Origin: an uncultured Candidatus Saccharibacteria bacterium
GTDB taxonomy: Bacteria; Patescibacteriota; Minisyncoccia; UBA11713; 2-01-FULL-45-33
Assembly (NCBI GenBank): GCA_964640425.1
Contig: CAZXFC010000001.1
Location: 46,930 to 85,167, forward strand
Length of the DNA: 38,238 nt
Reading direction: 5' to 3'
Part shown: positions 3,069-33,341 of the stretch, piece after piece
Position numbering within the stretch: the stretch's first letter is position 1
Layout: each line of letters opens with the position of its first letter
Made by a program: the position numbers and the translations under genes
Notes under the pieces: model-generated
The model's database searches: none
What the model saw: the letters and a program-made list of their open reading frames with translations, nothing else
What the model was told of the DNA's origin: nothing

Positions 3069-5392
<2,324 letters not shown>

Positions 5393-5393
5393 A

Positions 5394-6926
5394 TTATTTT
5401 AAATTCTTAAAATTAGTCGCCGCGGTCTTTAACGCGCCCTCGGTTTTTTCGTCAAATATTCCTTTGGCCAGGGGTTCTACTACGTCTTTTTTGTGGAGTT
5501 TCGCCAGATAATCCAAGAAATCCTTTTCGAATTCTTTGATATCGGCTTTCGGGACATCGTCCATGAAGCCGTTGATGGCCGCGTATAATACGGCGACCTC
5601 ATCCTCAACCGGAATCGGCTCACCGTCCGGCTGTTTTAATATTTCCGTTAAAAGCTGTCCTCTTTGTATTTGTTTTCTGGTGTCCTCGTCGAGGTCTGAA
5701 GCGAATTGCACGAAAGCCTGCAATTCCCTGAACTGGGCCAGCTCGAGGCGCAACCGCCCCGCAACTTTTTTCATCGGTTTGGTCTGCGCAGCCGAGCCGA
5801 CGCGGGAAACCGAAAGACCGACGTTCACCGCCGGGCGCGTACCCTGATAGAAAAGGTTCGATTCAAGGTATATCTGCCCGTCCGTAATTGAAATAACATT
5901 CGTGGGAACATACGCCGAAACGTCACCCAATTTTGTCTCAATTATAGGAAGCGCAGTCAGCGATCCTCCGCCTTTTTCTTTTGAAAATTTTGCCGCGCGC
6001 TCAAGAAGCCGTGCGTGCAGATAAAAAATATCTCCCGGATACGCCTCCCTGCCCGGCGGACGCCTCAAAAGGAGTGAAAGCTGCCGGTATGAATCAGCGT
6101 GCTTTGAAAGATCGTCATAAATAATAACCGCGTCCTTGCCCGAATCCATAAAATATTCACCGATGGCGCAACCGGCGAAGGGAGCCAGATACTGGAGAGA
6201 TGCCGGAGAAGACGCCGGCGCTGAAACTACTATTGTGTAAGAAAGCGCGCCTTTATCTTCAAGCATCTTTATTATTTTTGCTATCTTTGAATTTTTCTGA
6301 CCTACGGCCACGTAAATACACACCGTCTGCGTCCTTCCCGTACCTGCCGAATCCTGCTTTTGGTTCAAAATCGTGTCCAGCGCGATGGCCGTCTTTCCCG
6401 TTTGGCGGTCCCCGATTATGAGCTCGCGCTGTCCTCTGCCGATAGGAATCATGGCATCAATGGATTTTATTCCGGTCTGCACCGGCGTATTTACCGATTC
6501 GCGTTCAAGCACCGAAGGCGCGCGCCGTTCGAGAGGATAATCTTTCGCGCCGGAGACGTTTTTGAATATTACTCCTTTTCCGTCCAACGGAGCACCGAGC
6601 GGATCGACAACTCTTCCCAAAAGCTCTTCACCTGCTTTAATTGAAAGCACTTTTCCGCTTTTTGAAACGCGGTCGCCCACCGAAAGCACGCTTGCGTCAC
6701 CCAAAATTATTGCGCCGACAGAACCTTCTTCAAGATTAAAAGCCACCGCCGGAAGCTCGCCCGTGGCGCCCTTCACGGCCAAAAGTTCCTGGGCCAAGGC
6801 GTTCCTTAGCCCCGAAATTTTGGCAATGCCGTCGCCGACTTCGGAAACTATTCCCACATCGGAGAATTCCGCTTCGTCCTTGAAACCTACTATATCCCTT
6901 TTTAATTTTTCTATGATCTCCTTCAT
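5394..6926 (-). CDS. atpA: F0F1 ATP synthase alpha subunit
   Basis: 510 aa. Walker A GDRQTGKT, plus YDDLSKHA and [19 protein letters not shown] motifs. Confidence 0.97.
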
Positions 6927-11230: not shown

Positions 11231-11257
11231 AGAGGCCAAATGACCTCTTTTTTATTT
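11231..11257 (+). terminator. Rho-independent terminator
   Basis: AGAGG-ccaaatga-CCTCT hairpin followed by TTTTTTATTT. Confidence 0.6.
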
Positions 11258-11266
11258 CCCCATCCC

Positions 11267-11293
11267 GCACTTGGAAGCTTAGCTTCCAAGTGC
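11267..11293. repeat. REP-like perfect palindrome, family 1, upstream copy
   Basis: gcACTTGGAAGCT-T-AGCTTCCAAGTgc: 13-bp arms around a single central base. Confidence 0.95.
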
Positions 11294-11306
11294 TAGTATA
11301 AGCCGC

Positions 11307-11951
11307 ATGAGAAAAGAGGTTTTCACAAACGGTGAATTTTATCACGTGCATAACCGTGGAATAGATAAAAGGGTTGTTTTTGCGGATGCCGATGATTTTG
11401 AGCGTTTCCTGCAAAGTATGCAGGAATTTAATGTTATCGAACCAATCGGGAGTCTTTATGAATATTCGTTTTTAAAAGACAAGGTTTATAACCGTCGCCG
11501 CAAAAAAGGCAAATTGGTAAATTTTGTCGCCTACTGCTTAAACCCAAACCATTATCATTTTATTCTTGAACAAGCAGCAGAAAAAGGAATTGAAAAATTC
11601 ATGCAACGATTAGGAACCGGCTATTCAAACTATTTTAATGTTAAATACAAGAGAAATGGATCGCTGTTTCAGGGTACCTTCAAAGCCAAACACATTGATT
11701 CAAATGAATATTTGCTCCATTTAAGCGCTTACGTGAATTTAAATAACCGCATTCACCGACTTGGAAGCTTAGCTTCCAAGTCGAGTTGGAATGAATATGT
11801 AAATGAACAAAACGAGTTTTGCAATAAAAAGATTGTTTTAGATCAATTTAAAAATATAAACGAATATAGAGATTTCGCGGAGAGTTCCCTGAAAGACATA
11901 TTAGCCCGCAAGCAACTCTATAAAGAACTGGAAACAATTCTGTTTGATTAA
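11307..11951 (+). CDS. HUH/Y1 tyrosine transposase-like protein (REP-associated tyrosine transposase / IS200 TnpA family), 214 aa
   Basis: NPNHYHFIL (HUH motif), GEFYHVHNRG, and the SNEYLLHLSAYVNLNN helix carrying the candidate catalytic Tyr. Paralog at 23323-23964. Confidence 0.75.
   Translation: MRKEVFTNGEFYHVHNRGIDKRVVFADADDFERFLQSMQEFNVIEPIGSLYEYSFLKDKVYNRRRKKGKLVNFVAYCLNPNHYHFILEQAAEKGIEKFMQRLGTGYSNYFNVKYKRNGSLFQGTFKAKHIDSNEYLLHLSAYVNLNNRIHRLGSLASKSSWNEYVNEQNEFCNKKIVLDQFKNINEYRDFAESSLKDILARKQLYKELETILFD
11757..11783. repeat. REP-like perfect palindrome, family 1, intragenic in-frame copy
   Basis: cgACTTGGAAGCT-T-AGCTTCCAAGTcg, encoding RLGSLASKS within the transposase-like ORF. Confidence 0.95.
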
Positions 11952-11973
11952 CTTGGAAGCTTAGCTTCCAAGT
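11951..11973. repeat. REP-like perfect palindrome, family 1, downstream copy
   Basis: ACTTGGAAGCT-T-AGCTTCCAAGT. Its first base is the last base of the TAA stop. It lies between two convergent stop codons (11951 and 11977) and probably also acts as a bidirectional terminator hairpin. Confidence 0.95.
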
Positions 11974-11976
11974 CGG

Positions 11977-12720
11977 TTAATCATATGAACGTTCGCGCTC
12001 TTCAACCTCGCGGGCGGCGCAGCGATATCCGCAATAATCGCAATCATCGGACGGGCGCGGCATCTCGCCATCCAGACATTTTTTGATTTTTTGGAGCGTA
12101 GGCTCAATCCAGCCCGTATCGCCCGTGTAAGAGATTAGATTTATATAAAATTCCAACTTGCCGTCAAAGGCCTTTGCATCAACTTTTCCGGTGCAATAAA
12201 CAAAATACCCGGTTTTAGAAACTTCGTAACCCTTCTGGCGGAGAAGCCACTGATATATTTCCATCTGCCGTTTGTATCCGTCTTGCCATTCTTTGTCCAG
12301 CACCACAACCTGTTCTGCTTTCGCGGTCGCCTTGTAATCGACAATCATGTATTCTTTTTTTGAATCCTGCCAAAGGTCGTCTATCGCGCCGGTGATCAAG
12401 AAATTCGTCGGCTCGTGCAAATACTGAATGCCCTTGAAATTTTCACGCCAAATATCGAGTTCATTATGGGCCGCGGGCACAGCATCAATGCCATATCTTT
12501 TTTGTAAAGGATGCTGTGACCCGTTGGCGCGGTGAATATCGAATTCCGCTTTCAATAGCTTATCCACCGCGGAATTGAGCGAAAAAGGAAAACCCGGAGG
12601 ACGGCCTATGCCGAGCTTTCGGTCCAAATAGAAACACCTGGGGCATTCTACATATAGGTCTATCTTGGAACGGGATAGCTTAAAAGGCTTATCCGAGCTT
12701 TTATCGTAGCCGTTTTTCAT
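11977..12720 (-). CDS. PD-(D/E)XK nuclease, Cas4/RecB-like, with a Cys cluster
   Basis: GAIDDL (D), MIVDYKAT (D/ExK) and QMEIYQW (QxxxY) motifs. N-terminal CPRC plus C-terminal CDYCGYRC are consistent with a Cas4/AddB-type Fe-S cluster. Confidence 0.75.
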   Translation of the reverse strand: MKNGYDKSSDKPFKLSRSKIDLYVECPRCFYLDRKLGIGRPPGFPFSLNSAVDKLLKAEFDIHRANGSQHPLQKRYGIDAVPAAHNELDIWRENFKGIQYLHEPTNFLITGAIDDLWQDSKKEYMIVDYKATAKAEQVVVLDKEWQDGYKRQMEIYQWLLRQKGYEVSKTGYFVYCTGKVDAKAFDGKLEFYINLISYTGDTGWIEPTLQKIKKCLDGEMPRPSDDCDYCGYRCAAREVEERERSYD

Positions 12721-14608: not shown

Positions 14609-16033
14609 CTAAAGTTTTGCCGACATTTCCGCGAGCCGGCCTCTGTAAACCTTTTCTTTTAAAATAAGATGGGCAAACTCTTCTTCACCCTTATAAGTAT
14701 TTATGAGGTGAACAAGTCCGTTTGATTTGGAATCAAGCCGAGCGGCCGGCGGAATTTGGTCTGGGTCTCCGGTAAAAACTATTTTTGCCGGATCCGCCGG
14801 GCGGGAGGCAAGCATTTTAATATCTTTCTTTTTAAATAATTGCGGCTCATCAGCTACGATGAATCGGTTCCGCAAATTGCCTCCCTGCTGATAATTTATC
14901 GGCAATATGTCCAAATGTCCCTGAGCAATATAACTATTTACTATATTTTCAACCCCTTCGGGTTTTTCGCTCATAATCGGAACGCCTCTTCTGTCGAATT
15001 TAGCCGGCATGGCATGCGATCCGTCCAAATTTAAAATTATTTCAAAGGCGTCATAGACGGGTTGTTTCCATGGCCGAAATTTAGTGGAAGCGTCACCCGG
15101 CAAAGAACCTTGTTTCTCGCCGTATTCGATACTGGGCCTGAAAAAGAGGAGCTTTTTAAAAATATCCGGTTTTGCAAATCTTTGCTGCCAGCCGACTGCG
15201 GCGGCAAGCAGCGTCTTTCCGGTGCCCGCCTGGCCCATAAGGGACACGGCAAGAATTTCCGGGTCCAAGAGCAAGTGGCACGCAAATAATTGCTCGGAAT
15301 TTTTAGGCTCGATACGCAAGTTAATATTTCCCAAATCCTGCACGACCCTGAAAATTCGGGCCTTTTTTTTATAAATTGCCAACGCTGTCTTGTCTCCGCA
15401 GCGGATATAGCAGCAATGATTTGGAAAAAGATCTTTGCTTTTAAAGTTTAACGCAGCCGATAATATCAGCGAACTTTCGACGCGTTTTTCAGAATAGAGC
15501 TTATCGATCAGATCGGCGCCCGCCGGATCCAAATTTATATCCATCATGCCGGAATAAAGATGTTCAATCTGATCGTACTTATAATCTTCCGCCTTAAGTC
15601 CGCAGGCGTTTGCTTTCAAACGCGGAGCTTTGTCTTTACTGACAAAAATCACTTCTCTTCCGGGATTGGCTTTTTGCAGCTGATAAGCAAGAAGTATCAT
15701 GCGATTGTCATTTTTGATATCAAGCCCGGTCGGCAATTCCGTAAAATCCTTGTCCAAAGTAAAACGGACGAAAAACTTTCCGCCTCCGGGAGTAGGTATC
15801 CCGTCGACAAATGAACCGCGCGCCTCGCATTCAATCAGCTTCCGCAATGCTTCTCTGGCATCAAACTCTTTCTCCGGACGACCGGCAAGATTATCAAGTT
15901 CTTCATACATGCAACCGTGCGCGACGACTATATTTTCCGCAAAATTATCTATCGCGGTCGCGTCGTGCATCGCGACACTAGTATCGGGAACTATGATCTT
16001 GGCTGTTTCTGAATTTAAGAAGATATTTTTCAA
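14609..16033 (-). CDS. PIN-domain / PhoH-like ATPase fusion (YlaK-type)
   Basis: 474 aa. PIN-like N-terminus (IVPDTSVAMHD), Walker A GQAGTGKT, C-terminal PhoH-like GDPDQI. TTG start with a GAGGGAAGG SD. Confidence 0.85.
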   Translation of the reverse strand: MKNIFLNSETAKIIVPDTSVAMHDATAIDNFAENIVVAHGCMYEELDNLAGRPEKEFDAREALRKLIECEARGSFVDGIPTPGGGKFFVRFTLDKDFTELPTGLDIKNDNRMILLAYQLQKANPGREVIFVSKDKAPRLKANACGLKAEDYKYDQIEHLYSGMMDINLDPAGADLIDKLYSEKRVESSLILSAALNFKSKDLFPNHCCYIRCGDKTALAIYKKKARIFRVVQDLGNINLRIEPKNSEQLFACHLLLDPEILAVSLMGQAGTGKTLLAAAVGWQQRFAKPDIFKKLLFFRPSIEYGEKQGSLPGDASTKFRPWKQPVYDAFEIILNLDGSHAMPAKFDRRGVPIMSEKPEGVENIVNSYIAQGHLDILPINYQQGGNLRNRFIVADEPQLFKKKDIKMLASRPADPAKIVFTGDPDQIPPAARLDSKSNGLVHLINTYKGEEEFAHLILKEKVYRGRLAEMSAKL

Positions 16034-16149: not shown

Positions 16150-16246
16150 GCTTATGGGCACTTGTGGTCCGCCGCGTAAACTGATCGGTCCGACCTGAGT
16201 CGTGACCGGCAGGCGCAAGCTTGTGGGCACTTTTGGTCCGCCGCGT
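16150..16246 (-). repeat. Two 28-nt direct repeats (2 mismatches) spaced 69 nt apart, flanking a strong hairpin
   Basis: gcttatgggcacttgtggtccgccgcgt (16150-16177) and gcttgtgggcacttttggtccgccgcgt (16219-16246). The central hairpin GGTCaCGAC-tcag-GTCGGACC is seen on the minus strand. Confidence 0.8.
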
Positions 16247-16280: not shown

Positions 16281-17153
16281 CTAGAGCGATGCCATCTTGG
16301 CACTTTCTTCTTCTTGTTTTCTTTTTTTAAGATTTTCTTTAACATGACTCCGGATGTTTTCAGCCGGATACGTATCAACGGAAGACATATCATAAGGGCT
16401 TTGCCAGATGCCGCACGGCACCTCAATTCCCTTTCCGCTGCGCTTTAATTTTGAACCGATATTCTTAAAAACTATTTCTGCGCTCCCAAGTTCAGGATCA
16501 TCATACGCGTAGATGACCGGACTGCCCGGCTTCCATTTACTGAGCTCCGCGTGCAGTGCGGTAACCGACTTTTCAAGCTCATCTTCTCGGCTTGTCTTTT
16601 TGTTCTTGCCGGACCGCCGTTCTCCTCTTCCGTAAACCATCCATAACGCAAGTAAAATGAGCGCTGCACCACCCATTACCATAAGCGTCATAGTTATTTT
16701 CCACCAAGCAAGATCCATTTCTGCTTTCCCAAGAATATTCACAGTTTCTGAATGCTTCTTATTCAGTACTGCAAACTTTTCATTTGCGCTGATTTTATCC
16801 TTTATCGATCGGTCTATTTTCGCAAGCCAAAACTCTTCGTATTCAGCGCGTGATTTGGCGGGAAAAAAGAGGTTATCTCCGGTTCTTATTTGTTTCGCCC
16901 ATGCCAAAGCTACTTTCATGTCCTCGCTTAAATTTTTACGCAGCACGGCGGTCATGCAGCGGCCCGTTGTCATTCCGGAAGGAAGCAGCTTTTTAGCATA
17001 ACGATCCGCGCATATCCCCGAAATAGTATCGCCTTTCTCGATCACGATCAGGTCGGCGCCTTCTTTTTCGGAAAGTTTATGCGCGGGAGCTTTGTCCGAA
17101 AATGCGATAATAAACAAAGTAATAACCAATAAAGATATTTGAAGTTTTGTCAT
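16281..17153 (-). CDS. Hypothetical bitopic membrane protein (290 aa)
   Basis: Signal peptide, a central TM helix (WWKITMTLMVMGGAALILLALWMVYG) and a charged C-terminal half. Last gene of a long minus-strand operon. Confidence 0.6.
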   Translation of the reverse strand: MTKLQISLLVITLFIIAFSDKAPAHKLSEKEGADLIVIEKGDTISGICADRYAKKLLPSGMTTGRCMTAVLRKNLSEDMKVALAWAKQIRTGDNLFFPAKSRAEYEEFWLAKIDRSIKDKISANEKFAVLNKKHSETVNILGKAEMDLAWWKITMTLMVMGGAALILLALWMVYGRGERRSGKNKKTSREDELEKSVTALHAELSKWKPGSPVIYAYDDPELGSAEIVFKNIGSKLKRSGKGIEVPCGIWQSPYDMSSVDTYPAENIRSHVKENLKKRKQEEESAKMASL

Positions 17154-18156: not shown

Positions 18157-18191
18157 AAAAAACCCGTCCCGGCAATGAGCCGAGGCGGGTT
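18157..18191 (-). terminator. Rho-independent terminator after the PG-binding protein gene
   Basis: Long imperfect GC hairpin (AACCCGCC...GGACGGGTT on the minus strand) followed by T6. Confidence 0.65.
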
Positions 18192-18218
18192 ATTTATGCC
18201 AATTTCTGAAAAATCAGA

Positions 18219-19004
18219 TTATGTAGGAGTTGGTGTCGGTGTCGGCGTTGGCGTTGGAGTAGGTGTGGGTGTTGGAGTTGGAGTTGGTGTAGGAGTTGGC
18301 GTTGGTGTCGGGGTAGGAGTTGAAGTCGGGGTTGGTGTGGGAGTAACAACTGGTGGAGTGCTGGTAGCGCTCTTGCAAGGCATAACTATGGTTATATCTC
18401 TGATATTACCATGTCCTCGATTTCCACCTTTATGATCGTCATTATCTTCCCGCTCTATTTTTCTAAGCCATCCCGGAGCGATAAGATGCCCCGGCGGCAC
18501 GCAAAATCTTTTATCTCTACGGTTACCGTGTCCGCGATTATCTCCGTCATCATCGTCATCGTCTTCTTCTTTAAGATTATGTTTTGCCAGCTCTTTATTT
18601 AACTGTTCCAGGGTTTTAGGGCCAACTCGTCCGACTTGTTCAATCCCGAACTTTTTCTGGAATCTCTTAACCGCTTTTTCTGTAAGCTTGCCGAAAAATC
18701 CGGTTATCATACCCTCCGGGAAAATCGTCGGGTCGGCGGCAAGCAGGGTTTGCAATAACGCCACCTGATCCCCGGTTGAACCCTCATGCATTTGTCCTAT
18801 GAGCTTTATTGTACTTCTGATATCTTGCTGAGTTTGTACCACCTGATTCTGCGCGGCTACGAGCGCTTCGATTTGCGCTTTTAGAGCCGTTATTTGCGCC
18901 TGCAATTTTGCCACCAGTTCCGCTGAGGTTTCGGCGAATACCGGAACGGCCACGGCGAGAGCAAGAGCTGAAATAACCGCGAATTTTGCTATTTTTGTTC
19001 TCAT
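18219..19004 (-). CDS. Secreted protein with a coiled coil, a PG_binding_1-type peptidoglycan-binding domain and a C-terminal (Thr-Pro)n tail
   Basis: GDQVALLQTLLAADPTIFPEGMITGFFGKLTEKAVKRFQKKFGIEQVGRVGPKTLEQL fits PG_binding_1. Signal peptide present. A 41-residue TP tail runs up to the stop. Confidence 0.75.
   Translation of the reverse strand: MRTKIAKFAVISALALAVAVPVFAETSAELVAKLQAQITALKAQIEALVAAQNQVVQTQQDIRSTIKLIGQMHEGSTGDQVALLQTLLAADPTIFPEGMITGFFGKLTEKAVKRFQKKFGIEQVGRVGPKTLEQLNKELAKHNLKEEDDDDDDGDNRGHGNRRDKRFCVPPGHLIAPGWLRKIEREDNDDHKGGNRGHGNIRDITIVMPCKSATSTPPVVTPTPTPTSTPTPTPTPTPTPTPTPTPTPTPTPTPTPTPTPT
18222..18344 (-). repeat. Imperfect hexanucleotide (ACN-CCN)n tract encoding 41 residues of Thr-Pro repeat
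   Basis: Counted codon by codon from the stop at 18219-18221. The plus strand reads (GGNGTN)n. Confidence 0.95.
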
Positions 19005-23300: not shown

Positions 23301-23323
23301 ACTTAGCTGTCGGACAGCTAAGT
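23301..23323. repeat. REP-like perfect palindrome, family 2, downstream copy
   Basis: ACTTAGCTGTC-G-GACAGCTAAGT. Its last base is the first base of the stop codon (23323-23325). Confidence 0.95.
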
Positions 23324-23964
23324 TAATCTAAAAGCATAGTTTCTAATTCTTTTTGCATAGCTTTTTTTTCCAGAATTGATTTTAAGGAATTTTCAGAAAA
23401 ATCCTTGTATTCAATAAGGTTCTTGAATTGTTTTAAAACAATATCTTTAGTACATAAAGATTTATCAATATTATTTAAATATTCATGCCGGCTTGAACGG
23501 AACTCATCACCTCTTATTTGATGAACCAAATTATTAAGATTTACATAAGCACTGACATGCAACAAATATTCGTTTGAATCTATATGCGCGGCTTTAAATT
23601 TTCCCTGGAACAGAACTCCGCTTCTTTTGTATTTGAAATTGAATCCCTGGGTATATCCGCCTCCCAGCCTTTTCATAAATTCGCTTATCCCGTTTTCCGT
23701 GCGCTGCCTTAAGATAATATGATAATGATTCGGATTAAGGCAGTAACAAACAATATCTACCAGCTTAGCTGTCCGACTGCTAAGTAGAGACTTATCTCGA
23801 AAAGAGTTTTCAAACAGGCTACCGATTGGATTTTTTGTATTAAATTCGGCCATACTTTGCAGAAATCTGTCAAAATCATCGCGATCAAGAAATACCGGCC
23901 GTTTGTCCGTACCTCGATTATAAATATGATAAAATTCCCCATTGGCAAATCTGACTTTTCTCAT
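23323..23964 (-). CDS. HUH/Y1 tyrosine transposase-like protein, paralog 2 (213 aa)
   Basis: NPNHYHIIL (HUH), GEFYHIYNRG, SNEYLLHVSAYVNLNN. Collinear with the 11307-11951 protein. Confidence 0.75.
   Translation of the reverse strand: MRKVRFANGEFYHIYNRGTDKRPVFLDRDDFDRFLQSMAEFNTKNPIGSLFENSFRDKSLLSSRTAKLVDIVCYCLNPNHYHIILRQRTENGISEFMKRLGGGYTQGFNFKYKRSGVLFQGKFKAAHIDSNEYLLHVSAYVNLNNLVHQIRGDEFRSSRHEYLNNIDKSLCTKDIVLKQFKNLIEYKDFSENSLKSILEKKAMQKELETMLLD
23763..23785. repeat. REP-like palindrome, family 2, intragenic in-frame copy (21/23 match)
   Basis: GCTTAGCTGTC-C-GACTGCTAAGT, within the codons for LLSSRTAKL. Confidence 0.85.
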
Positions 23965-23980
23965 GGTGCCAATATATTAG

Positions 23981-24005
23981 CACTTAGCTGTCCGACAGCT
24001 AAGTG
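23981..24005. repeat. REP-like perfect palindrome, family 2, upstream copy
   Basis: cACTTAGCTGTC-C-GACAGCTAAGTg, 16 nt upstream of ATG 23964. Confidence 0.95.
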
Positions 24006-26851: not shown

Positions 26852-28960
26852 TTAAGGCAGCTGCGGCATCGGAAGGTTGAGGGCAGGGCAATTTAACATG
26901 TTGATCCAGCGCTTGGTTGTTTTGTAGACGTAACCTGTGCCGGTTTTATCAATATTTCCGGTTTGCTGTTCCCACGGCGTCAAAATCTGTTCAGCTGCTT
27001 TTACCTGAAATCTTTTTACCGCGCCAAACGAGAGCTGTCCGTAGAATCCGGTTACCGGCAGACTTTCGCCGAGAGTGTTTAAAAAGCTCTGCAATTTTTT
27101 AACTTCGTCGGAATTATTTTTCCTTCCAAGTTTTATATAATCGCCCAAGTATGCCGAGCAGCTTGAAGGTAATCCGTCCGTGGTTGCGCCCAAAACCTGG
27201 CCCTGCGAGACTACAGATCCGTTACCGGGCGCCGTGAATGCTCCCGAAACTTGCCCCCCGCTCGGAACCAAAGGTCCGTTGCCGGGAGGAACAGAAGTCG
27301 GTGCAGGCGCGGAAGTCGGGGCCGGAACCGGAGTAGGAGTTGGGCCGGTATAAGTATAGGCCATAGGTCCGGCAACGGCGGTATTTTCCGGATTACCCGC
27401 ATTATCAACGGCGCTCGCTTCAAAACAATATGCGCCGCGGCCGTTTTCCGGCACCCAATTTGTTTCCGGCGCCCATGGGACATTCAACGGATCCGCACTT
27501 TGAAGATTAAGATGGATGATCTCTATCGGAATTTCTTCGCTGTTGCGGCCCGAACAATCCAGTTCCGTAAATACGTCAAAGAAGCTGTCAATGAATTGAG
27601 TATCCTTAATTTGAAATGCTTTAAGCGTTACTTCGGCCACGCCAGACATGTCGTCCGTTGAATGGCCGCTTAACAATTCCAAAGAGACCATTTCGGTATC
27701 GATCGACGGATGGTTATTCAATTCATTTTGATCGTCAAAAAATGACTGGGGAGGAGTCGTATCTTCAGGAGTCGGTGTTGGTTCCGGAGTTGGAGTCGGT
27801 TCCGGATCCTCATTTTCCTGATTCCCGAAATTCACATCCTCGGCGTCCGAACCTTCCAATTCGACAACATGACAGCCGTCATTTTCTTCAGGATATGTTT
27901 GCGTCCAGTCATCCTGATGCTGCTCACACAGCATATAGTTGTCAGCATCCAGTCCGCTGAACTGATAAGCTCCATTTTCATCGGTTTCACTTTCATCCAA
28001 TAACTCGTCACCGGCCCAAAGCTCGATAGTCCAACCAAAAAGCCCATCCTCGCCGAAATCCCATACGCCGTCTCCGTTCAGGTCATTGAATTTATATCCT
28101 GAGATCGAAAAACCGTATGGAGATTCATCGTTGTCGTCGAGCGATTCGCAGTTATTATCGTCAGAATCTATCATTCCGTCTCCATCATTATCTGCACCAT
28201 CGCCGCATTGAGTAGTTACATTAATAGTGACGGTAGCAACATTGCTGTCATCCGTACCGTCATTGACATGATAAGTGAAAGAATCGGTTCCGTTGAAGCC
28301 CGAATTTGGGGTGTAATTTACTATATTATCAAGTATTTCACCGATTATATCGTCCAAACTTCCGTTCGCCGGGAGCGAGTCTATGAAGTATGTTAATGGG
28401 TCGCTGTCCGCATCTGTTCCCAGCAAGGTGATAGGATTATCCAGACTATTCATATCAACCCAAACCTCCGTGTCTTCCGCGGCCGGAGATGCGTTGGGAG
28501 TCGGCGCAGCGCATCCGGTCACTTCAAGAGTTGCTGATTCTTGTATAGAACCATCTGAATCCGTTATCACTTTCGCTGTCCAGGTCCCGCACTCATCCGG
28601 AGAGAAAGGCACTTCGGCGTTGCCTGCGTTATTACTGGCCGAACTAACAAATGGAGTAACCGAGTCAGACGGACTATAAATGCTGATATGATGAATATGG
28701 TCCATACCCAATCCTGTGCTTTTCGCACAAGTATCGTTTAAAACAACAAGCGATGTTATATTGGATCCGGTGCACGCTACATTTGTTTTAAAACTTAAAT
28801 TAATTGCGGCTGAAGCTACGCTTGGCACTAAAACCGCCAAAGGAGCAATTAAATAAACGACCATTGCCGCGATGGTGACAACCGAGTTCGCGGTCCTGCC
28901 TACCGGCAGGCAGGCTTTGAGGACTGACATATGTGTTTTGCTTAAAACATTCATTTCCAT
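26852..28960 (-). CDS. Large secreted surface protein: cadherin-like/VCBS-type Ig domain, DNDGDG metal-binding motif, SdrD-B/Cna-B-like domain, TP linkers, C-terminal peptidoglycan-binding domain
   Basis: DADSDPLTYFIDSLPANGSL...FNGTDSFTYHVNDGTDDSNVATVTINV (cadherin-like), CGDGADNDGDGMIDSDDNNC, GYKFNDLNGDGVWDFGEDGLFGWTIELW...DENGAYQFSGL (SdrD B-like), and the C-terminal [43 protein letters not shown]. The start is uncertain: ATG at 28960, 28954 or 28930. Confidence 0.8.
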   Translation of the reverse strand: MEMNVLSKTHMSVLKACLPVGRTANSVVTIAAMVVYLIAPLAVLVPSVASAAINLSFKTNVACTGSNITSLVVLNDTCAKSTGLGMDHIHHISIYSPSDSVTPFVSSASNNAGNAEVPFSPDECGTWTAKVITDSDGSIQESATLEVTGCAAPTPNASPAAEDTEVWVDMNSLDNPITLLGTDADSDPLTYFIDSLPANGSLDDIIGEILDNIVNYTPNSGFNGTDSFTYHVNDGTDDSNVATVTINVTTQCGDGADNDGDGMIDSDDNNCESLDDNDESPYGFSISGYKFNDLNGDGVWDFGEDGLFGWTIELWAGDELLDESETDENGAYQFSGLDADNYMLCEQHQDDWTQTYPEENDGCHVVELEGSDAEDVNFGNQENEDPEPTPTPEPTPTPEDTTPPQSFFDDQNELNNHPSIDTEMVSLELLSGHSTDDMSGVAEVTLKAFQIKDTQFIDSFFDVFTELDCSGRNSEEIPIEIIHLNLQSADPLNVPWAPETNWVPENGRGAYCFEASAVDNAGNPENTAVAGPMAYTYTGPTPTPVPAPTSAPAPTSVPPGNGPLVPSGGQVSGAFTAPGNGSVVSQGQVLGATTDGLPSSCSAYLGDYIKLGRKNNSDEVKKLQSFLNTLGESLPVTGFYGQLSFGAVKRFQVKAAEQILTPWEQQTGNIDKTGTGYVYKTTKRWINMLNCPALNLPMPQLP

Positions 28961-30251: not shown

Positions 30252-33200
30252 CTACGGAAGCATAGGTATCGGAAGGTTGAGGGCCGGGCAATTTAACATG
30301 TTGATCCAGCGCTTGGTCGTTTTATAGACGTAGCCTGTGCCATTTATATCAATTTCTCCGGTCTGCTGTATCCACGGCACAAGAACCTGGTCGGCGGAAC
30401 GCACTTGGAATCGTTTTACGGCCCCGTACGTAAGCTGTCCGTAAAATCCTGTTACCGGCAGATTCTCTCCCATTTTATTCAGGAAGATCTGCAGTTTGAT
30501 AACTTCATTAGGATTATTTTTTCTTCCGAGCTTGATGTATTCGTTCAGATATACAGTACAGCTTGGAGGAAGCTCTGTGGCCTCACCCAATACCTGGCCG
30601 GGCGGATTTGCCAACGGAGGTCCGTTCGCAATGATCGTCGGGGTCGGCGTAGGAGTCGGTGTCGGGCCTCCCCCGCCGGTATTAGTTTCGTCGTTATCCA
30701 TCGGAACATAACTTCCATCATTGGAAGCATTGCCGTCTGAGTGACAACCGGGATCGGCGGCGTCTTTCAATCCATCGCCATCGTTGTCTTCGTGATCCGA
30801 ACAAGCCGGAATAGGACTGCCGCCGCCTGTCACAGTAGGAGTGGGCGTCGGAGTAGGTGTCGGTGTCGGAGACGGACTCACAACATGGACATTCCTGGTA
30901 ACTTCGGTCGCGGCAAGTCCGTCTGTGTCGGTATAATTGTATTTAACAACAAAGTCGGCTGGAGCAGTTGTAACAACAGTGTCTCCGCTTACGAGAGCCG
31001 GATGACTGCCGTCTTCAACGTCGCTCGCTACTGCGCCGGGTTCGGCGTATGTATCGCCTACGTTGAGATTTACAGGATTCGCGCCATTTAAAGTTATCGT
31101 CGGTGGAGAATTTTCATTATCATCGGTAGGACTATCGCATCCGGAATCCGAAGCGAAAGCTATATCATCCTCTACGTGACCTGTGAAATCTATTTTATTA
31201 TCCCCGTCATTGTCTATTCCATCTGAACATTGAGGAGTGGGCGTGGGAGTAGGAGATGGCGTCGGCGTAGGGGTCGGTGTCGGTGTCGGAGTTGGCGTAG
31301 GAGTCGGAACCGGCGCGTTCCAAGCTACGCAATGATACGTGTTGCCGGCAATAGGATGAAGAATGAAATCATAGTTATCGTAATTCAATCCGTCCTGGTA
31401 ACATGATAATTCCGCGCTCACCTGAACGCCCGACGGATGGACAGCGCCAAGAAAAGGAACGTATCCATCCCTGAAAACTTCGCGAACCCATAGCCGATCT
31501 CCGAATGATGCTACATTTATATCCGCAGTGACAACGCCCGAGCCGTTGGTAAAGCCGGTAGTTGTCCACGGAGCCTCCGCAATACCGTCTTCATCTCCGG
31601 GATTTGGAGTACTTGAAGGAGCATATTGAAATTGCCAGCCTGACGCCAAGTGACAATTTTCATTCTCCGCCAAGAAATTATCTGCGGTTGAAGCGGTTGT
31701 GTTGTGGTGAACGGACATTGCGTCCGGCAAATCAGCTTCGCGGTCACAAACTATTTTTGTAAATACGAAAGTTGCGGAGCCCGGAGCGGGTGTCGGAGTA
31801 GGCTCGGGAGTCGGTGTAGGAGATGGCGTCGGCGTAGGGGTTGGTGTCGGTGTCGGTGAAGGAGTCGGAGTGGGCGTGGGAGTTGGTGTAGGACAAGGGA
31901 CTGTTTCAGGGTGGAATGTAATTCCATTAACGGAAAAGTCCATGTATGACTGTACGACATGGCGTTCCGCGAAGAATATTTCAAAATGATTTATTCCTTC
32001 GGGAATATGCAATGTTCCGGTTTTGGTAAGAGGAGCGTGAACTCCTGAGTTGTCTATGACCAATTCTCCATTTATGTATACCCAAGCGTCATCGTCGGAG
32101 GTTAGCGTGTAGCTATAATTACCGGCGGACGCCGTAAAGGTTTTCGCACGCCAATGAACACCGAAATGATATTCATGTCCGTTATCGATCTCTTCTGGCG
32201 TCGCATCAAACGGAAAGAAATTGCCGCCGAAATTGAGGTTTGAGTCAATTCGCGTGAAGCGCGAAAATTCACTATTATACCAGACCGTAGTCCAGACAGC
32301 TTCGGCTGAAAGCGGGTCTCCATTGGAAACCGACCATTGGGAAGACGGAAGATTCATTCCTTCAGTAGTGCGGGAGTAGTTGAAATACTCTCCGTTCAAT
32401 CCAATCTGTGCTCCGCTTAGATCGCACTGTTCAGGTGTCGGTGTCGGAGTTGGCGTAGGAGTCGGAGAAGGAGTTGGCTCCGGAGCTTTAACATTATAGG
32501 CAATGCAATATGCGTCCTGAGGCAAACTATTTCCCAGGTTTACATATTCCAAATTGTCGCCGTTCAAAGCATCATTGTAACAGCGCAAAGCGCCGAAAAC
32601 TGCTTCGTCGTTATTTAAGATCTCGCTTACCCACATTGAACCGCCGCCCAAAAGAAGATCTTTCAAACCGGAAGGCAGATCATTCACGGAGATCGTGAAT
32701 TCACCATCGCCGTTTGTCGGTCCAATGTCCATTACATTTTGGGTTTGTCCGTGATCGGAAGAAATTTTGAAGTTCCATCCCGATGCGCGTTCACAGTCTT
32801 CAGGAATTTCCGACGGATTGACCGGCTTTCTGTTGTAAGGATTCGGGAAATACGGGGCATTCGAAAATTCATTAAAGTGCCCTTCTGTCGCATCGAGGTT
32901 TTGAGCCTCTGCATTTCCGGCGATGTCGCCATATGACTCGCATTCAATTTTTATGAAATGCAAAGTCGTTCCTGTAGGAGTCGGCGTTGGTGTCGGCGTA
33001 GGCTCACCTTCATTGCAGTGAGGATTACCCGTGTGTTCTCCGTGTTCGCATTCGTGTCCGGGCACATTGTCGCACGATGAACCCGAGCAGCCGTGGTGCC
33101 GGTTGCCGTCATTATCGTTTCCATTGTCGTCACCATCGTTGTCGTTTTCATCTTGATCATCGTCATGATGAGTATCTTGGTCTTCATGCAAAATTGATAC

Positions 33201-33341
33201 GGTCTCGCTGTCTCCATCGTTAGCGTAAGCTATTTGTGGAGAAAAATTGATCAAGCCTCCGGCATACGCATAAAATACGATCGCCGCGCCCACCAAGACC
33301 ATATCAAAAATATGCAAAAAACCGTTAGGTTTTCTAAGCAT
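30252..33341 (-). CDS. Giant secreted surface protein (1029 aa): two paralogous Cys-containing beta-sandwich-like domains, PA14 domain, DUF5011-like Ig domain, DNDGD metal-binding motifs, multiple TP linkers, C-terminal peptidoglycan-binding domain
   Basis: GLNGEYFNY...[22 protein letters not shown] (PA14), [33 protein letters not shown] (DUF5011-like), [15 protein letters not shown] and [20 protein letters not shown]. The C-terminal 95 aa are collinear with the 702-aa protein. Confidence 0.85.
31233..31308 (-). repeat. (Thr/Ser-Pro)n-coding hexanucleotide tract (coordinates approximate)
   Basis: The plus strand reads (GGNGTN)n. Encodes [27 protein letters not shown]. Confidence 0.85.
31782..31895 (-). 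repeat. (Thr/Ser/Glu-Pro)n-coding hexanucleotide tract (coordinates approximate)
   Basis: Encodes [37 protein letters not shown]. Confidence 0.85.

Follow-up and report, generated by a model that had tools for sequence, protein, structure and literature searches.

The stretch of DNA considered here (38,238 nucleotides from an uncultured Candidatus Saccharibacteria bacterium, contig CAZXFC010000001.1 of assembly GCA_964640425.1; referred to below as the window) carries at positions 11267-11973 a gene for a Y1/HUH transposase homolog enclosed between copies of a perfect palindrome. This locus raises the question of whether such a unit is a minimal insertion sequence (IS) of the IS200 type, a domesticated enzyme of the REP-associated tyrosine transposase (RAYT) kind accompanied by its own repetitive extragenic palindromic (REP) sequences, or a gene whose hairpins have a different origin or role. 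We consider it probable, though well short of certain, that this is one of two REPtron-like units in the window, each consisting of a RAYT-like Y1/HUH gene and a cognate 23-nt palindrome with a conserved foot on both sides. The best reading of the unit type is a class-2 RAYT-like variant with an unusual self-embedded architecture. The genome is taken to be a patescibacterial one of the Giovannonibacteria type.

In unit 1, the gene (11307-11951, plus strand) encodes a 214-aa homolog of RAYT-like Y1/HUH single-stranded DNA (ssDNA) endonucleases/transposases, with H82-Y-H84 and the tyrosine Y142. An earlier note, made from the letters of the sequence, had recognized the open reading frame (ORF) by NPNHYHFIL and SAYVNLNN, and both motifs are present. 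The upstream palindrome H0 (11267-11293, plus strand) has 13-nt arms (11267-11279 and 11281-11293) and a 1-nt loop (-13.7 kcal/mol, z -8.2), and includes the exact 23-mer ACTTGGAAGCTTAGCTTCCAAGT at 11269-11291. The downstream palindrome H3 (11951-11973, plus strand; -9.9 kcal/mol) is an exact copy of this 23-mer, and base 11951 is common to H3 and the stop codon TAA (11949-11951). The flanking copies, the 13-bp upstream arms and the shared base are all as the earlier note had them, but it counted two copies where unit 1 has three, the third lying inside the ORF at 11759-11781 and encoding L-G-S-L-A-S-K. This copy forms the center of H2 (11757-11783, plus strand; 13-nt arms; -13.6 kcal/mol, z -7.2), which is read in frame as R-L-G-S-L-A-S-K-S, and the peptide (aa 152-159, R-L-G-S-L-A-S-K) is directly C-terminal to the catalytic Tyr helix. 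A vestigial fourth site, H1, is located approximately at 11481-11504 (plus strand) by alignment with the orthologs at loci L084 and L080, and has the same length as their in-frame palindrome, with its palindromy gone. The expected count of ACTTGGAAGCTTAGCTTCCAAGT in 100 dinucleotide-preserving shuffles is none, and the units and palindromes of the window are far beyond chance. Upstream, a terminator-like hairpin with a T-run (11231-11248) insulates unit 1 from the preceding ORF.

Unit 2 is encoded on the minus strand and contains a paralogous gene (23323-23964, 213 aa). The protein identity of the two units, put at 55-65% by eye in the earlier note, is 61% (131/215). As the note also described, unit 2 has a different palindrome of its own. 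One copy of it again overlaps the stop codon by one base. This 23-nt palindrome, ACTTAGCTGTC-C/G-GACAGCTAAGT, occurs at 23301-23323 (H3, minus strand; -9.2 kcal/mol) and at 23982-24004, within an H0 of 12-nt arms (23981-24005, minus strand; -11.1 kcal/mol). A decayed in-frame copy with two mismatches, H1 (23763-23785, minus strand; -4.5 kcal/mol, z -0.9), encodes L-L-S-S-R-T-A-K (aa 61-68) ahead of the HUH strand, and the H2 site is lost. The internal copies sit at different positions in the two proteins, past the Tyr helix in unit 1 and before the HUH strand in unit 2, and neither is an insertion relative to the other paralog, because the alignment of the two is nearly gapless there. Folded as ssDNA, the intact hairpins of the window have energies of -9.2 to -13.7 kcal/mol (z -5.4 to -8.2), a range that the decayed copy of unit 2 does not reach. 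The REPtron arrangement, in which a gene has its own hairpin repeats on both sides, is true of both units.

The same architecture is found throughout the family. In 79 genomic loci, represented by one genome per species, every gene was scanned with 150 nt on either side for perfect palindromes. The family palindrome is a 23-nt A-CTTGG-N11-CCAAG-T, sometimes with CTTAG/CTAAG feet, and occupies up to four fixed sites per gene: H0, about 10-25 nt upstream of the ATG (64/79 genes); H1, in frame at about aa 57-63 (41/79); H2, in frame at about aa 145-160 (also 41/79); and H3, at or just past the stop codon (65/79). H0 and H3 are both present in 58 of the 79 genes, and all four sites are filled in 22. 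Palindromes inside the ORFs are concentrated at aa 50-69 (n=45) and aa 140-169 (n=43), with 10 at the ORF 3' end (H3) and six elsewhere. The inner length is 11 nt at 173 of 177 unit sites with canonical feet, non-coding sites included, and at 30 of 32 dispersed sites. The outer feet are conserved family-wide and the inner 11 nt are gene-specific, with 61 distinct inner arms among 211 sites. The 6-nt inner arm is identical in 183 of 231 site pairs within a gene (79%), compared with 369 of 21924 pairs between genes (1.7%). Each paralog family-wide thus has its own palindrome, in agreement with what the earlier note described for the two units. Six more distant Y1 paralogs (28-39% identical) are found in the same loci. 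In five of them, unrelated palindromes have a similar arrangement (upstream, internal at one place and/or downstream; all three in two cases).

Within a gene, the cores are copied in either orientation. In the L084 ortholog, the imperfect core GGAAGC-CGA-GCTCCC is present at H0 and H1, and its exact reverse complement, mismatch included, is present at H2; the reappearance of the mismatch in reverse complement indicates that whole cores are copied, in one orientation or the other. Loop orientation is the same or flipped in a ratio of about 50:50 for every site pair. The loop is TTA at all three unit 1 sites and CGA/TCG in the orthologs and in the copy in atpG described below, which indicates concerted change. 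The same pattern is seen in the proteins, whose family consensus contains the motif L-G-x-x-x-S-K twice, at about aa 60 and aa 153, since CTT-GGN-...-NCC-AAG encodes such a peptide. The variable residues of the motif co-vary within a protein (P0013, for instance, carries two copies of LGHRVSK, and P0076 two of LGDLVSK). In 34 of 120 close relatives and 12 of 137 diverse ones (0 in shuffles), a 7-mer from near aa 60 recurs near aa 154, and the repeated 7-mers differ only by reverse-complement codon pairs, namely S/R (TCG/CGA), F/E, L/K, P/R and W/P.

Amino-acid differences between near-identical alleles (at least 90% identical; clusters of P0016 and P0062/P0066) are found chiefly in the H1 or H2 peptides, for example KLGSSASK versus QLGNRASK with linked flanking changes, or KIGKRTSK, KSGKLTSK and KIKKRTSK, which suggests patch-wise replacement around the hairpin sites. 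Some family members are mosaics (P0059 and P0078, compared with L025, P0052, P0020 and P0132), with parts about 100% identical to different relatives, and reflect either real paralog recombination or chimeras of metagenome assembly. Module shuffling at the hairpins was rejected, as the mosaics cross over within the most highly conserved parts of the core (YCLNPNHYHFILEQ, GTGYTKYFNNKY) and not at H1 or H2.

Palindromes of the family are rare away from the Y1 genes. In 1.22 Mb of loci, the Y1 units (68 kb) contain 179 family-type palindromes and all other DNA (1,152 kb) contains 32, corresponding to densities of 2.6/kb and 0.028/kb and an enrichment of about 95-fold. Those outside units are mostly intergenic, at gene ends. 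Among 31 of them, 18 have the local gene as their cognate, and the density declines from 0.084/kb within 500 nt of a unit to 0 at 8-10 kb. The exact 23-mer of unit 1 was found in at least 100 metagenome stretches, with at least 124 matches. Among the matches listed, 44 of 124 are at Y1 units (H0 15, H1 2, H2 14, H3 13) and 80 are away from any Y1 gene; of 74 solitary copies that could be assessed, 44 fall within ORFs of 80 aa or more and 29 between genes; at 106 distinct sites the palindrome is longer than 23 nt in 61%, with nine doublets; and a 649-kb contig has one exact copy. The palindrome, called private in the earlier note, is therefore private within the window as an exact 23-mer only, given these stretches and a related doublet in atpG. 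Of the many dispersed REPs that a RAYT was expected to have, real examples exist, often in frame within genes, but they are sparse compared with the copies inside units.

The genes that host in-frame copies include conserved housekeeping genes on contigs of other Patescibacteria. Ten host ORFs in stretches L088-L187 were compared with protein families, and nine match conserved enzyme or translation-factor families: NAD synthase, elongation factor G (EF-G), PMT_2 glycosyltransferase, tRNA-guanine transglycosylase (TGT), M23 peptidase, glutamyl-tRNA synthetase (GluRS), serine hydroxymethyltransferase (SHMT), class-V aminotransferase and glutamate dehydrogenase. The tenth gave a PsbP-like match only, below the cut-off. 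The copy in SHMT is an 11-aa insertion, H-L-E-A-K-L-P-S-G-S-L-A-S. In the window, a doublet relative of the unit 1 palindrome (4700-4738, minus strand; 15-nt arms; -20.3 kcal/mol) is in frame in atpG (ORF 4433-5392, minus strand), within an insertion of about 27 aa relative to the Geobacillus gamma subunit. Its two halves, GGAAGC-CGA-GCTTCC and GGAAGC-TCG-GCTTCC, have loops in opposite orientation. The L084 ortholog carries a degenerate version of this doublet, so the atpG insertion predates the species split. In another locus (L009), family-type palindromes at 6287-6313 and 6820-6842 bracket a 119-aa ORF (6485-6844), which we take to resemble the four-helix-bundle '23S rRNA intervening sequence' proteins. 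A deletion derivative, with the N-terminus of the Y1 protein fused to its C-terminus at a hairpin, was considered for this ORF and rejected, as the ORF is unrelated to Y1.

Part of this pattern could arise without an enzyme. If the hairpins were selfish or neutral repeats spread by host slippage, template switching and short-tract gene conversion, their association with Y1 genes would be historical. Loop flips and palindrome perfection are classic outcomes of template switching, and flips occur here in the even ratio given above. No hairpin polymorphism was found among strains with identical genes (L080-L083, L084-L087), so turnover is slow, with no fast flip-flop, and the core GGAAGC..GCTTCC recurs in many lineages and organisms. 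Template switching of host replication at palindromes could yield both homogenization and loop flipping, and could account for part of the homogenization. As an account of the whole, a host process is unlikely. It does not predict the roughly 95-fold enrichment in and around Y1 genes, the decay of density with distance from them, or the sharing of cognate cores within genes and not between them. It also leaves aside the different palindromes, similarly laid out, of five of the six distant Y1 paralogs. The association of gene and palindrome is of the same kind as that which defines RAYT-REP pairs (PMC6006769). Four groundwater metagenome runs contain the region, at 3-5x and in Logan contigs that are broken at hairpins. 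No joints between hairpins, as expected from excision or flipping, were detected in them, which at this depth carries no weight either way.

The upstream palindrome has a further feature, which the earlier note overlooked together with the in-frame internal copies and the four-site layout; what the note did describe of the units was otherwise right but incomplete. An extended -10-like element, TG-C-TAGTAT (11291-11299, plus strand, by direct reading), overlaps the end of H0 in unit 1 and ends 7 nt before the ATG, and the left foot of H0 contains a -35-like TTGGAA (11271-11276), 17 nt upstream of the -10 box. In unit 2, a similar element, TG-C-TAATAT (23982-23974, minus strand), follows H0 and ends 9 nt before the ATG at 23964. 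Family-wide, TGnTAnnnT is present at a fixed offset after 38 of 58 H0 sites, compared with 1 of 57 H3 sites, the distance from the end of the -10 box to the start codon is 6-9 nt, and the left-foot TTGG is placed 17 nt upstream as a -35-like element in 25 cases. These positions suggest that H0 is part of the promoter and lies upstream of the transcription start. With a -10 box ending 7 nt before the ATG, the mRNA of unit 1 would be leaderless or nearly so.

Such a placement invites the alternative that the hairpins are cis-regulatory sites in double-stranded DNA, with H0 as an operator and H3 as a terminator or stabilizer of the mRNA end, bound by the Y1 protein or a host factor without cleavage or mobility, and with the internal copies as by-products. 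H0 does lie between the -35-like and extended -10-like boxes, H3 adjoins the stop codon in both units, the dispersed intergenic copies are mostly at the 3' ends of genes, and the catalytic function of the Y1 protein is a prediction. We regard this alternative as quite unlikely, as it leaves unexplained why in-frame copies occupy two fixed loops of the gene and occur in EF-G, GluRS and other housekeeping genes, why SHMT and atpG have in-frame insertions, and why the inner 11 nt are strictly palindromic, change in a compensatory way and are copied in both orientations. In addition, the flanks of H3 are usually not T-rich, and the HUH and Tyr residues, invariant under purifying selection, argue for retained catalysis.

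Since the transcript of the gene includes H1, H2 and H3, for which stable stems are predicted, the hairpins might instead act in the mRNA, in translation or stability, and be maintained by selection on RNA structure. The collected palindromes were preselected for palindromy, which would make covariation testing circular, and position-based counts were used. Those of mismatches show no sense-strand wobble bias (G.T 20 versus A.C 22), that is, no excess of G.U-compatible mismatches, which argues for a DNA-level rather than an RNA-level constraint. Together with the probable position of H0 upstream of the transcription start, the presence of copies in both orientations and on both strands with respect to host genes, and the lack of any Rfam family match, this makes a role in RNA extremely unlikely.

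Sequence comparison with relatives indicates that the Y1 unit is a resident, vertically inherited gene. An ortholog (P0005, 72% identical) is found at locus L084 between the same neighbors as in the window (ATP synthase operon, alpha-amylase, an 80-aa ORF, Y1, PD-(D/E)XK nuclease), and the identity of these neighbors is 61-81%, so that their divergence has kept pace with that of the Y1 gene; an ortholog of this divergence in the same gene neighborhood means that it is no recently active IS. The synonymous sites are saturated (pS, the proportion of synonymous differences, 0.73-0.83) and the nonsynonymous ones are not (pN 0.14-0.17), showing purifying selection, and despite this saturation the palindromes are almost unchanged between the orthologs. 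The closest relative (P0006, also 72% identical) sits in a different gene context, so occasional relocation may occur. The gene for the PD-(D/E)XK nuclease (11977-12720, minus strand) is convergent with unit 1 and directly downstream of it, and its product is 81% identical in the syntenic ortholog; it is probably a mere neighbor, because it is absent beside P0006.

The earlier note had also offered a minimal IS200-type element as a possible layout. In that case the end hairpins would be recognition structures of an autonomous IS, and the 0.7-kb unit would move by single-strand 'peel and paste'. The size, the single Y1 gene, the similar hairpins at both ends of the unit, a fold related to the TnpA proteins of IS608 and ISDra2, the relocated P0006 and the presence of several paralogs per genome would all suit an IS. 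We nevertheless judge an IS to be very unlikely, and this part of the earlier note is not supported. No second, near-identical copy of a whole unit was seen on the contigs carrying units, the two units of the window being only 61% identical in protein. The L084 ortholog is syntenic and as diverged as its neighbors, with saturated synonymous sites under purifying selection. The Y motif is of the class-2 type (Y---N), not the Y---Q of IS200 (PMC6006769). No tnpB is present, and the palindrome moves alone into other genes. IMG/VR (viral contigs) contains no relatives of the Y1 protein, which further counts against an IS; carriage by phages was rejected on the same result.

The protein of unit 1 is a Y1/HUH enzyme by its profile match, conserved residues and modeled fold, with catalysis predicted. 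A search with Pfam Y1_Tnp (PF01797), as the earlier note had proposed, gives 31.8 and 32.2 bits for the two window proteins against a cut-off of 23, over positions 37-119 of the 121 of the profile only, and N81, H82, H84 and Y142 are invariant in 106 relatives. Retained catalysis is argued by the invariance of the HUH and Tyr residues under purifying selection. In an AlphaFold2 model built on the alignment of these 106 relatives (pLDDT 83, pTM 0.82), Y142 falls in a predicted helix (aa 133-144), and the expected order of strands and helices is supplemented by a further pair of helices ahead of the HUH strands and by a C-terminal helix of 30 residues. Model confidence is lowest near the first palindrome-encoded site (pLDDT below 50 at aa 61-65; average of 63 for the blocks spanning aa 51-70), and dips again at the second (mean pLDDT of 69 for the block 151-160). 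The top Foldseek match of the model is the E. coli RAYT bound to REP (4er8_A, E 3.4e-5), followed by the TnpA proteins of IS608 and ISDra2 (2vic_A, E 9.3e-4; probability 0.99-1.00 for 4er8_A and 2vic_A; further IS608/ISDra2 chains at E 1e-3 to 2e-2, probability 0.91-1.00), with modest TM-scores of 0.38-0.54. A word-indexed search gave 2951 relatives, the named ones belonging to Giovannonibacteria, Parcubacteria, Kaiserbacteria and other Patescibacteria, and an exhaustive profile search gave 1014 clusters (50% identity) at E <= 1e-30.

Several observations weigh against a RAYT-like REPtron, among them two given above, the identical hairpins of identical strains and the capacity of host template switching to homogenize and flip loops without an enzyme. 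The match to solved structures is at the level of fold only, as a search with the family profile finds no solved structure by sequence at E <= 1. The NCBIfam equivalog for RAYTs (NF047646, REP_Tyr_transpos) is missed by far, at 26.3 and 30 bits where 80 are required. The tyrosine motif is Y-V-N-L-N-N and not Y---NP, with N146 invariant and the Pro position occupied by N, D or F. The GT[AG]G foot, a hallmark of RAYT systems, is absent, the feet being A-CTTGG/CCAAG-T or CTTAG/CTAAG. The copy number per genome appears small, far under that of classical REP families, and high-copy dispersal (typically >100) is not seen at 0.028/kb outside units in 1.15 Mb of flanks. Finally, a simple sigma-70 scan does not call the two H0 promoters of the window (8/12 matches), so that the promoter claim rests on family-wide positional conservation, with consensus positions as its basis. 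The RAYT layout suggested in the earlier note thus holds as far as the REPtron-like organization goes, and fails at the equivalog and the GTAG foot.

Comparison with described systems locates the family more closely. According to Quentin et al. 2018 (PMC6006769), class-2 TnpA_Y1 genes occur in low copy number, with cognate REPs that have a GT[AG]G foot on either side of the gene. The E. coli RAYT, a monomer, recognizes GTAG together with the base of the hairpin, and its cut is at CT (Messing et al. 2012, PMC3479197). Like the REPtrons of E. coli (YafM/TnpA_REP, PDB 4ER8) and the Pseudomonas RAYTs, the present family has a Y1/HUH enzyme (with 4er8_A as its best fold match) that is low-copy, vertically inherited and under purifying selection, with diverged paralogs within a genome. 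Its genes are likewise flanked by their own palindrome family, different for each paralog, and there are doublets with inverted loops, resembling REPINs, and dispersed copies mostly at the 3' ends of genes. Unlike REPtrons, it has ACTTGG/CCAAGT feet on both sides in place of a GT[AG]G guide tetranucleotide, a unit fixed at 23 nt and very few dispersed copies per genome. Its protein exceeds theirs by about 50-60 aa and in the model has a helical insertion N-terminal to the HUH strand and a long helix at the C-terminus. The protein also scores below the NCBIfam RAYT cut-off, and the upstream copy of the palindrome appears to be built into the promoter. In short, the family works like a REPtron yet departs from RAYTs in several respects: it has no GTAG foot, a score below the equivalog cut-off, a low copy number, and a Y motif (Y---NN) that agrees with Y---NP in the Asn and differs in the Pro.

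TnpA_Y1 subclass 2.4 (PMC6006769), which comprises RAYTs with in-frame double-foot REPs, shares with the present family the double-footed palindromes, the maintained reading frame and insertion in peripheral loops. In the present family, by comparison, the two in-gene sites keep fixed places family-wide, one ahead of the HUH strand and one past the Tyr helix. Decay leaves their length unchanged, and their sequence is kept the same as that of the flanking copies. Subclass 2.1 has the motifs NH[YF]H, FQ and Y[IV]HLNP and no REPs (Quentin et al. 2018, PMC6006769). Compared by motif description, those of subclass 2.1 and the terminal inverted repeat-associated tyrosine transposases (TIRYTs; NH[YF]H, FQ, Y[IV]HLN-; Quentin 2018; Di Nocera 2013) resemble the NHYH, LFQG and YVNLNN of the present proteins, and they too are longer, with a C-terminal extension. 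Unlike the present family, they are reported to have terminal inverted repeats or to lack REP-like hairpins. IS200 elements (IS200/IS605 family, subclass 1.1) are similar in having about 0.7 kb, one Y1 gene and hairpins near both ends, and differ in a TnpA of about 150 aa with Y---Q (PMC6006769), compared with 213-214 aa and YVNLN here, and in their multiple near-identical copies and imperfect subterminal hairpins.

Intragenic REPs and Rickettsia palindromic elements (RPEs) have been described (Di Nocera et al. 2013, PMC3733652). As here, they are short palindromes in frame in housekeeping genes, adding 9-30 residues in permissive loops. The RPEs are 100-150 bp long with no linked transposase, unlike the present unit of 23 nt (33-39 nt as a doublet), which is tied to a Y1 gene family. 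We did not find described elsewhere the four fixed docking sites, two of them in frame, the fixed 23-nt unit, or feet that probably double as promoter elements. The literature searched contained no relevant report of RAYT, REPIN or IS200 in Patescibacteria or the candidate phyla radiation, which is not proof that there is none.

A mechanism for such a RAYT-like unit can be proposed. The Y1 enzyme would bind the hairpins in ssDNA exposed during replication or transcription, and would cut and rejoin at the conserved feet. This cutting and rejoining would copy or swap the core among nearby docking sites, resulting in concerted evolution within the unit, and would occasionally seed new copies, single or doublet, between genes and, within other genes, in permissive loops, by analogy with what has been proposed for RAYT/REPIN systems. 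At H0, the left foot would supply the -35-like TTGG and the right foot the TG of the extended -10, and binding of the protein there might sense or repress its own promoter. H1 and H2 lie in two flexible loops of the protein, both read as L-G-x-x-x-S/A-K.

A bolder idea is that the in-frame hairpins are not passengers but a built-in self-referential device, by which the enzyme keeps its own substrate in its promoter and two of its coding loops. We consider this a long shot. If true, any change of core would appear immediately in the promoter, at the ends of the gene and in two surface peptides (L-G-x-x-x-S-K) beside the catalytic Tyr helix. Substrate identity, autoregulation and perhaps substrate recognition would then be coupled in one copying step, providing each paralog with a private 'address'. 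In a weaker form, processing of hairpins within the gene may switch the gene off or on.

The window contains further repeats. Degenerate 6/12/18-nt GTNGGN repeats (plus strand) form long runs at 18177-18374, 27296-27805 and 30631-33002, and encode Pro/Thr-rich low-complexity linkers in three large minus-strand ORFs (18219-19004, 26852-28960 and 30252-33341). A 300-nt direct repeat of 76% identity (26853-27152 and 30253-30552) lies at the 3' ends of the ORFs for proteins of 702 and 1029 aa, which have a C-terminal module in common. A 28-nt direct repeat (16150-16177 and 16219-16246; 93% identical, 69 nt apart) is located in the intergenic gap between ORFs 14609-16033 and 16281-17153, and has no Rfam match.

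Among domesticated transposases, RAYT/REPIN systems are the chief known example of an enzyme that endures together with a population of short hairpin repeats belonging to it, and the copying of these repeats is poorly understood. The present family would be a stripped-down version of such a system in the tiny, gene-dense genomes of Patescibacteria, ultra-small bacteria of groundwater. Four docking sites lie within about 700 bp and change visibly in step, in both orientations, while the unit is constant at 23 nt, the feet are conserved and the core is specific to each gene, so that copying by the enzyme could be tested with two short oligonucleotides and one small protein. In addition, housekeeping proteins of the candidate phyla radiation, including ATP synthase gamma, SHMT, EF-G, GluRS and others, have short palindromes written into them in frame. 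These palindromes parallel the Rickettsia palindromic elements, and bear on the annotation and interpretation of insertions in these proteins.

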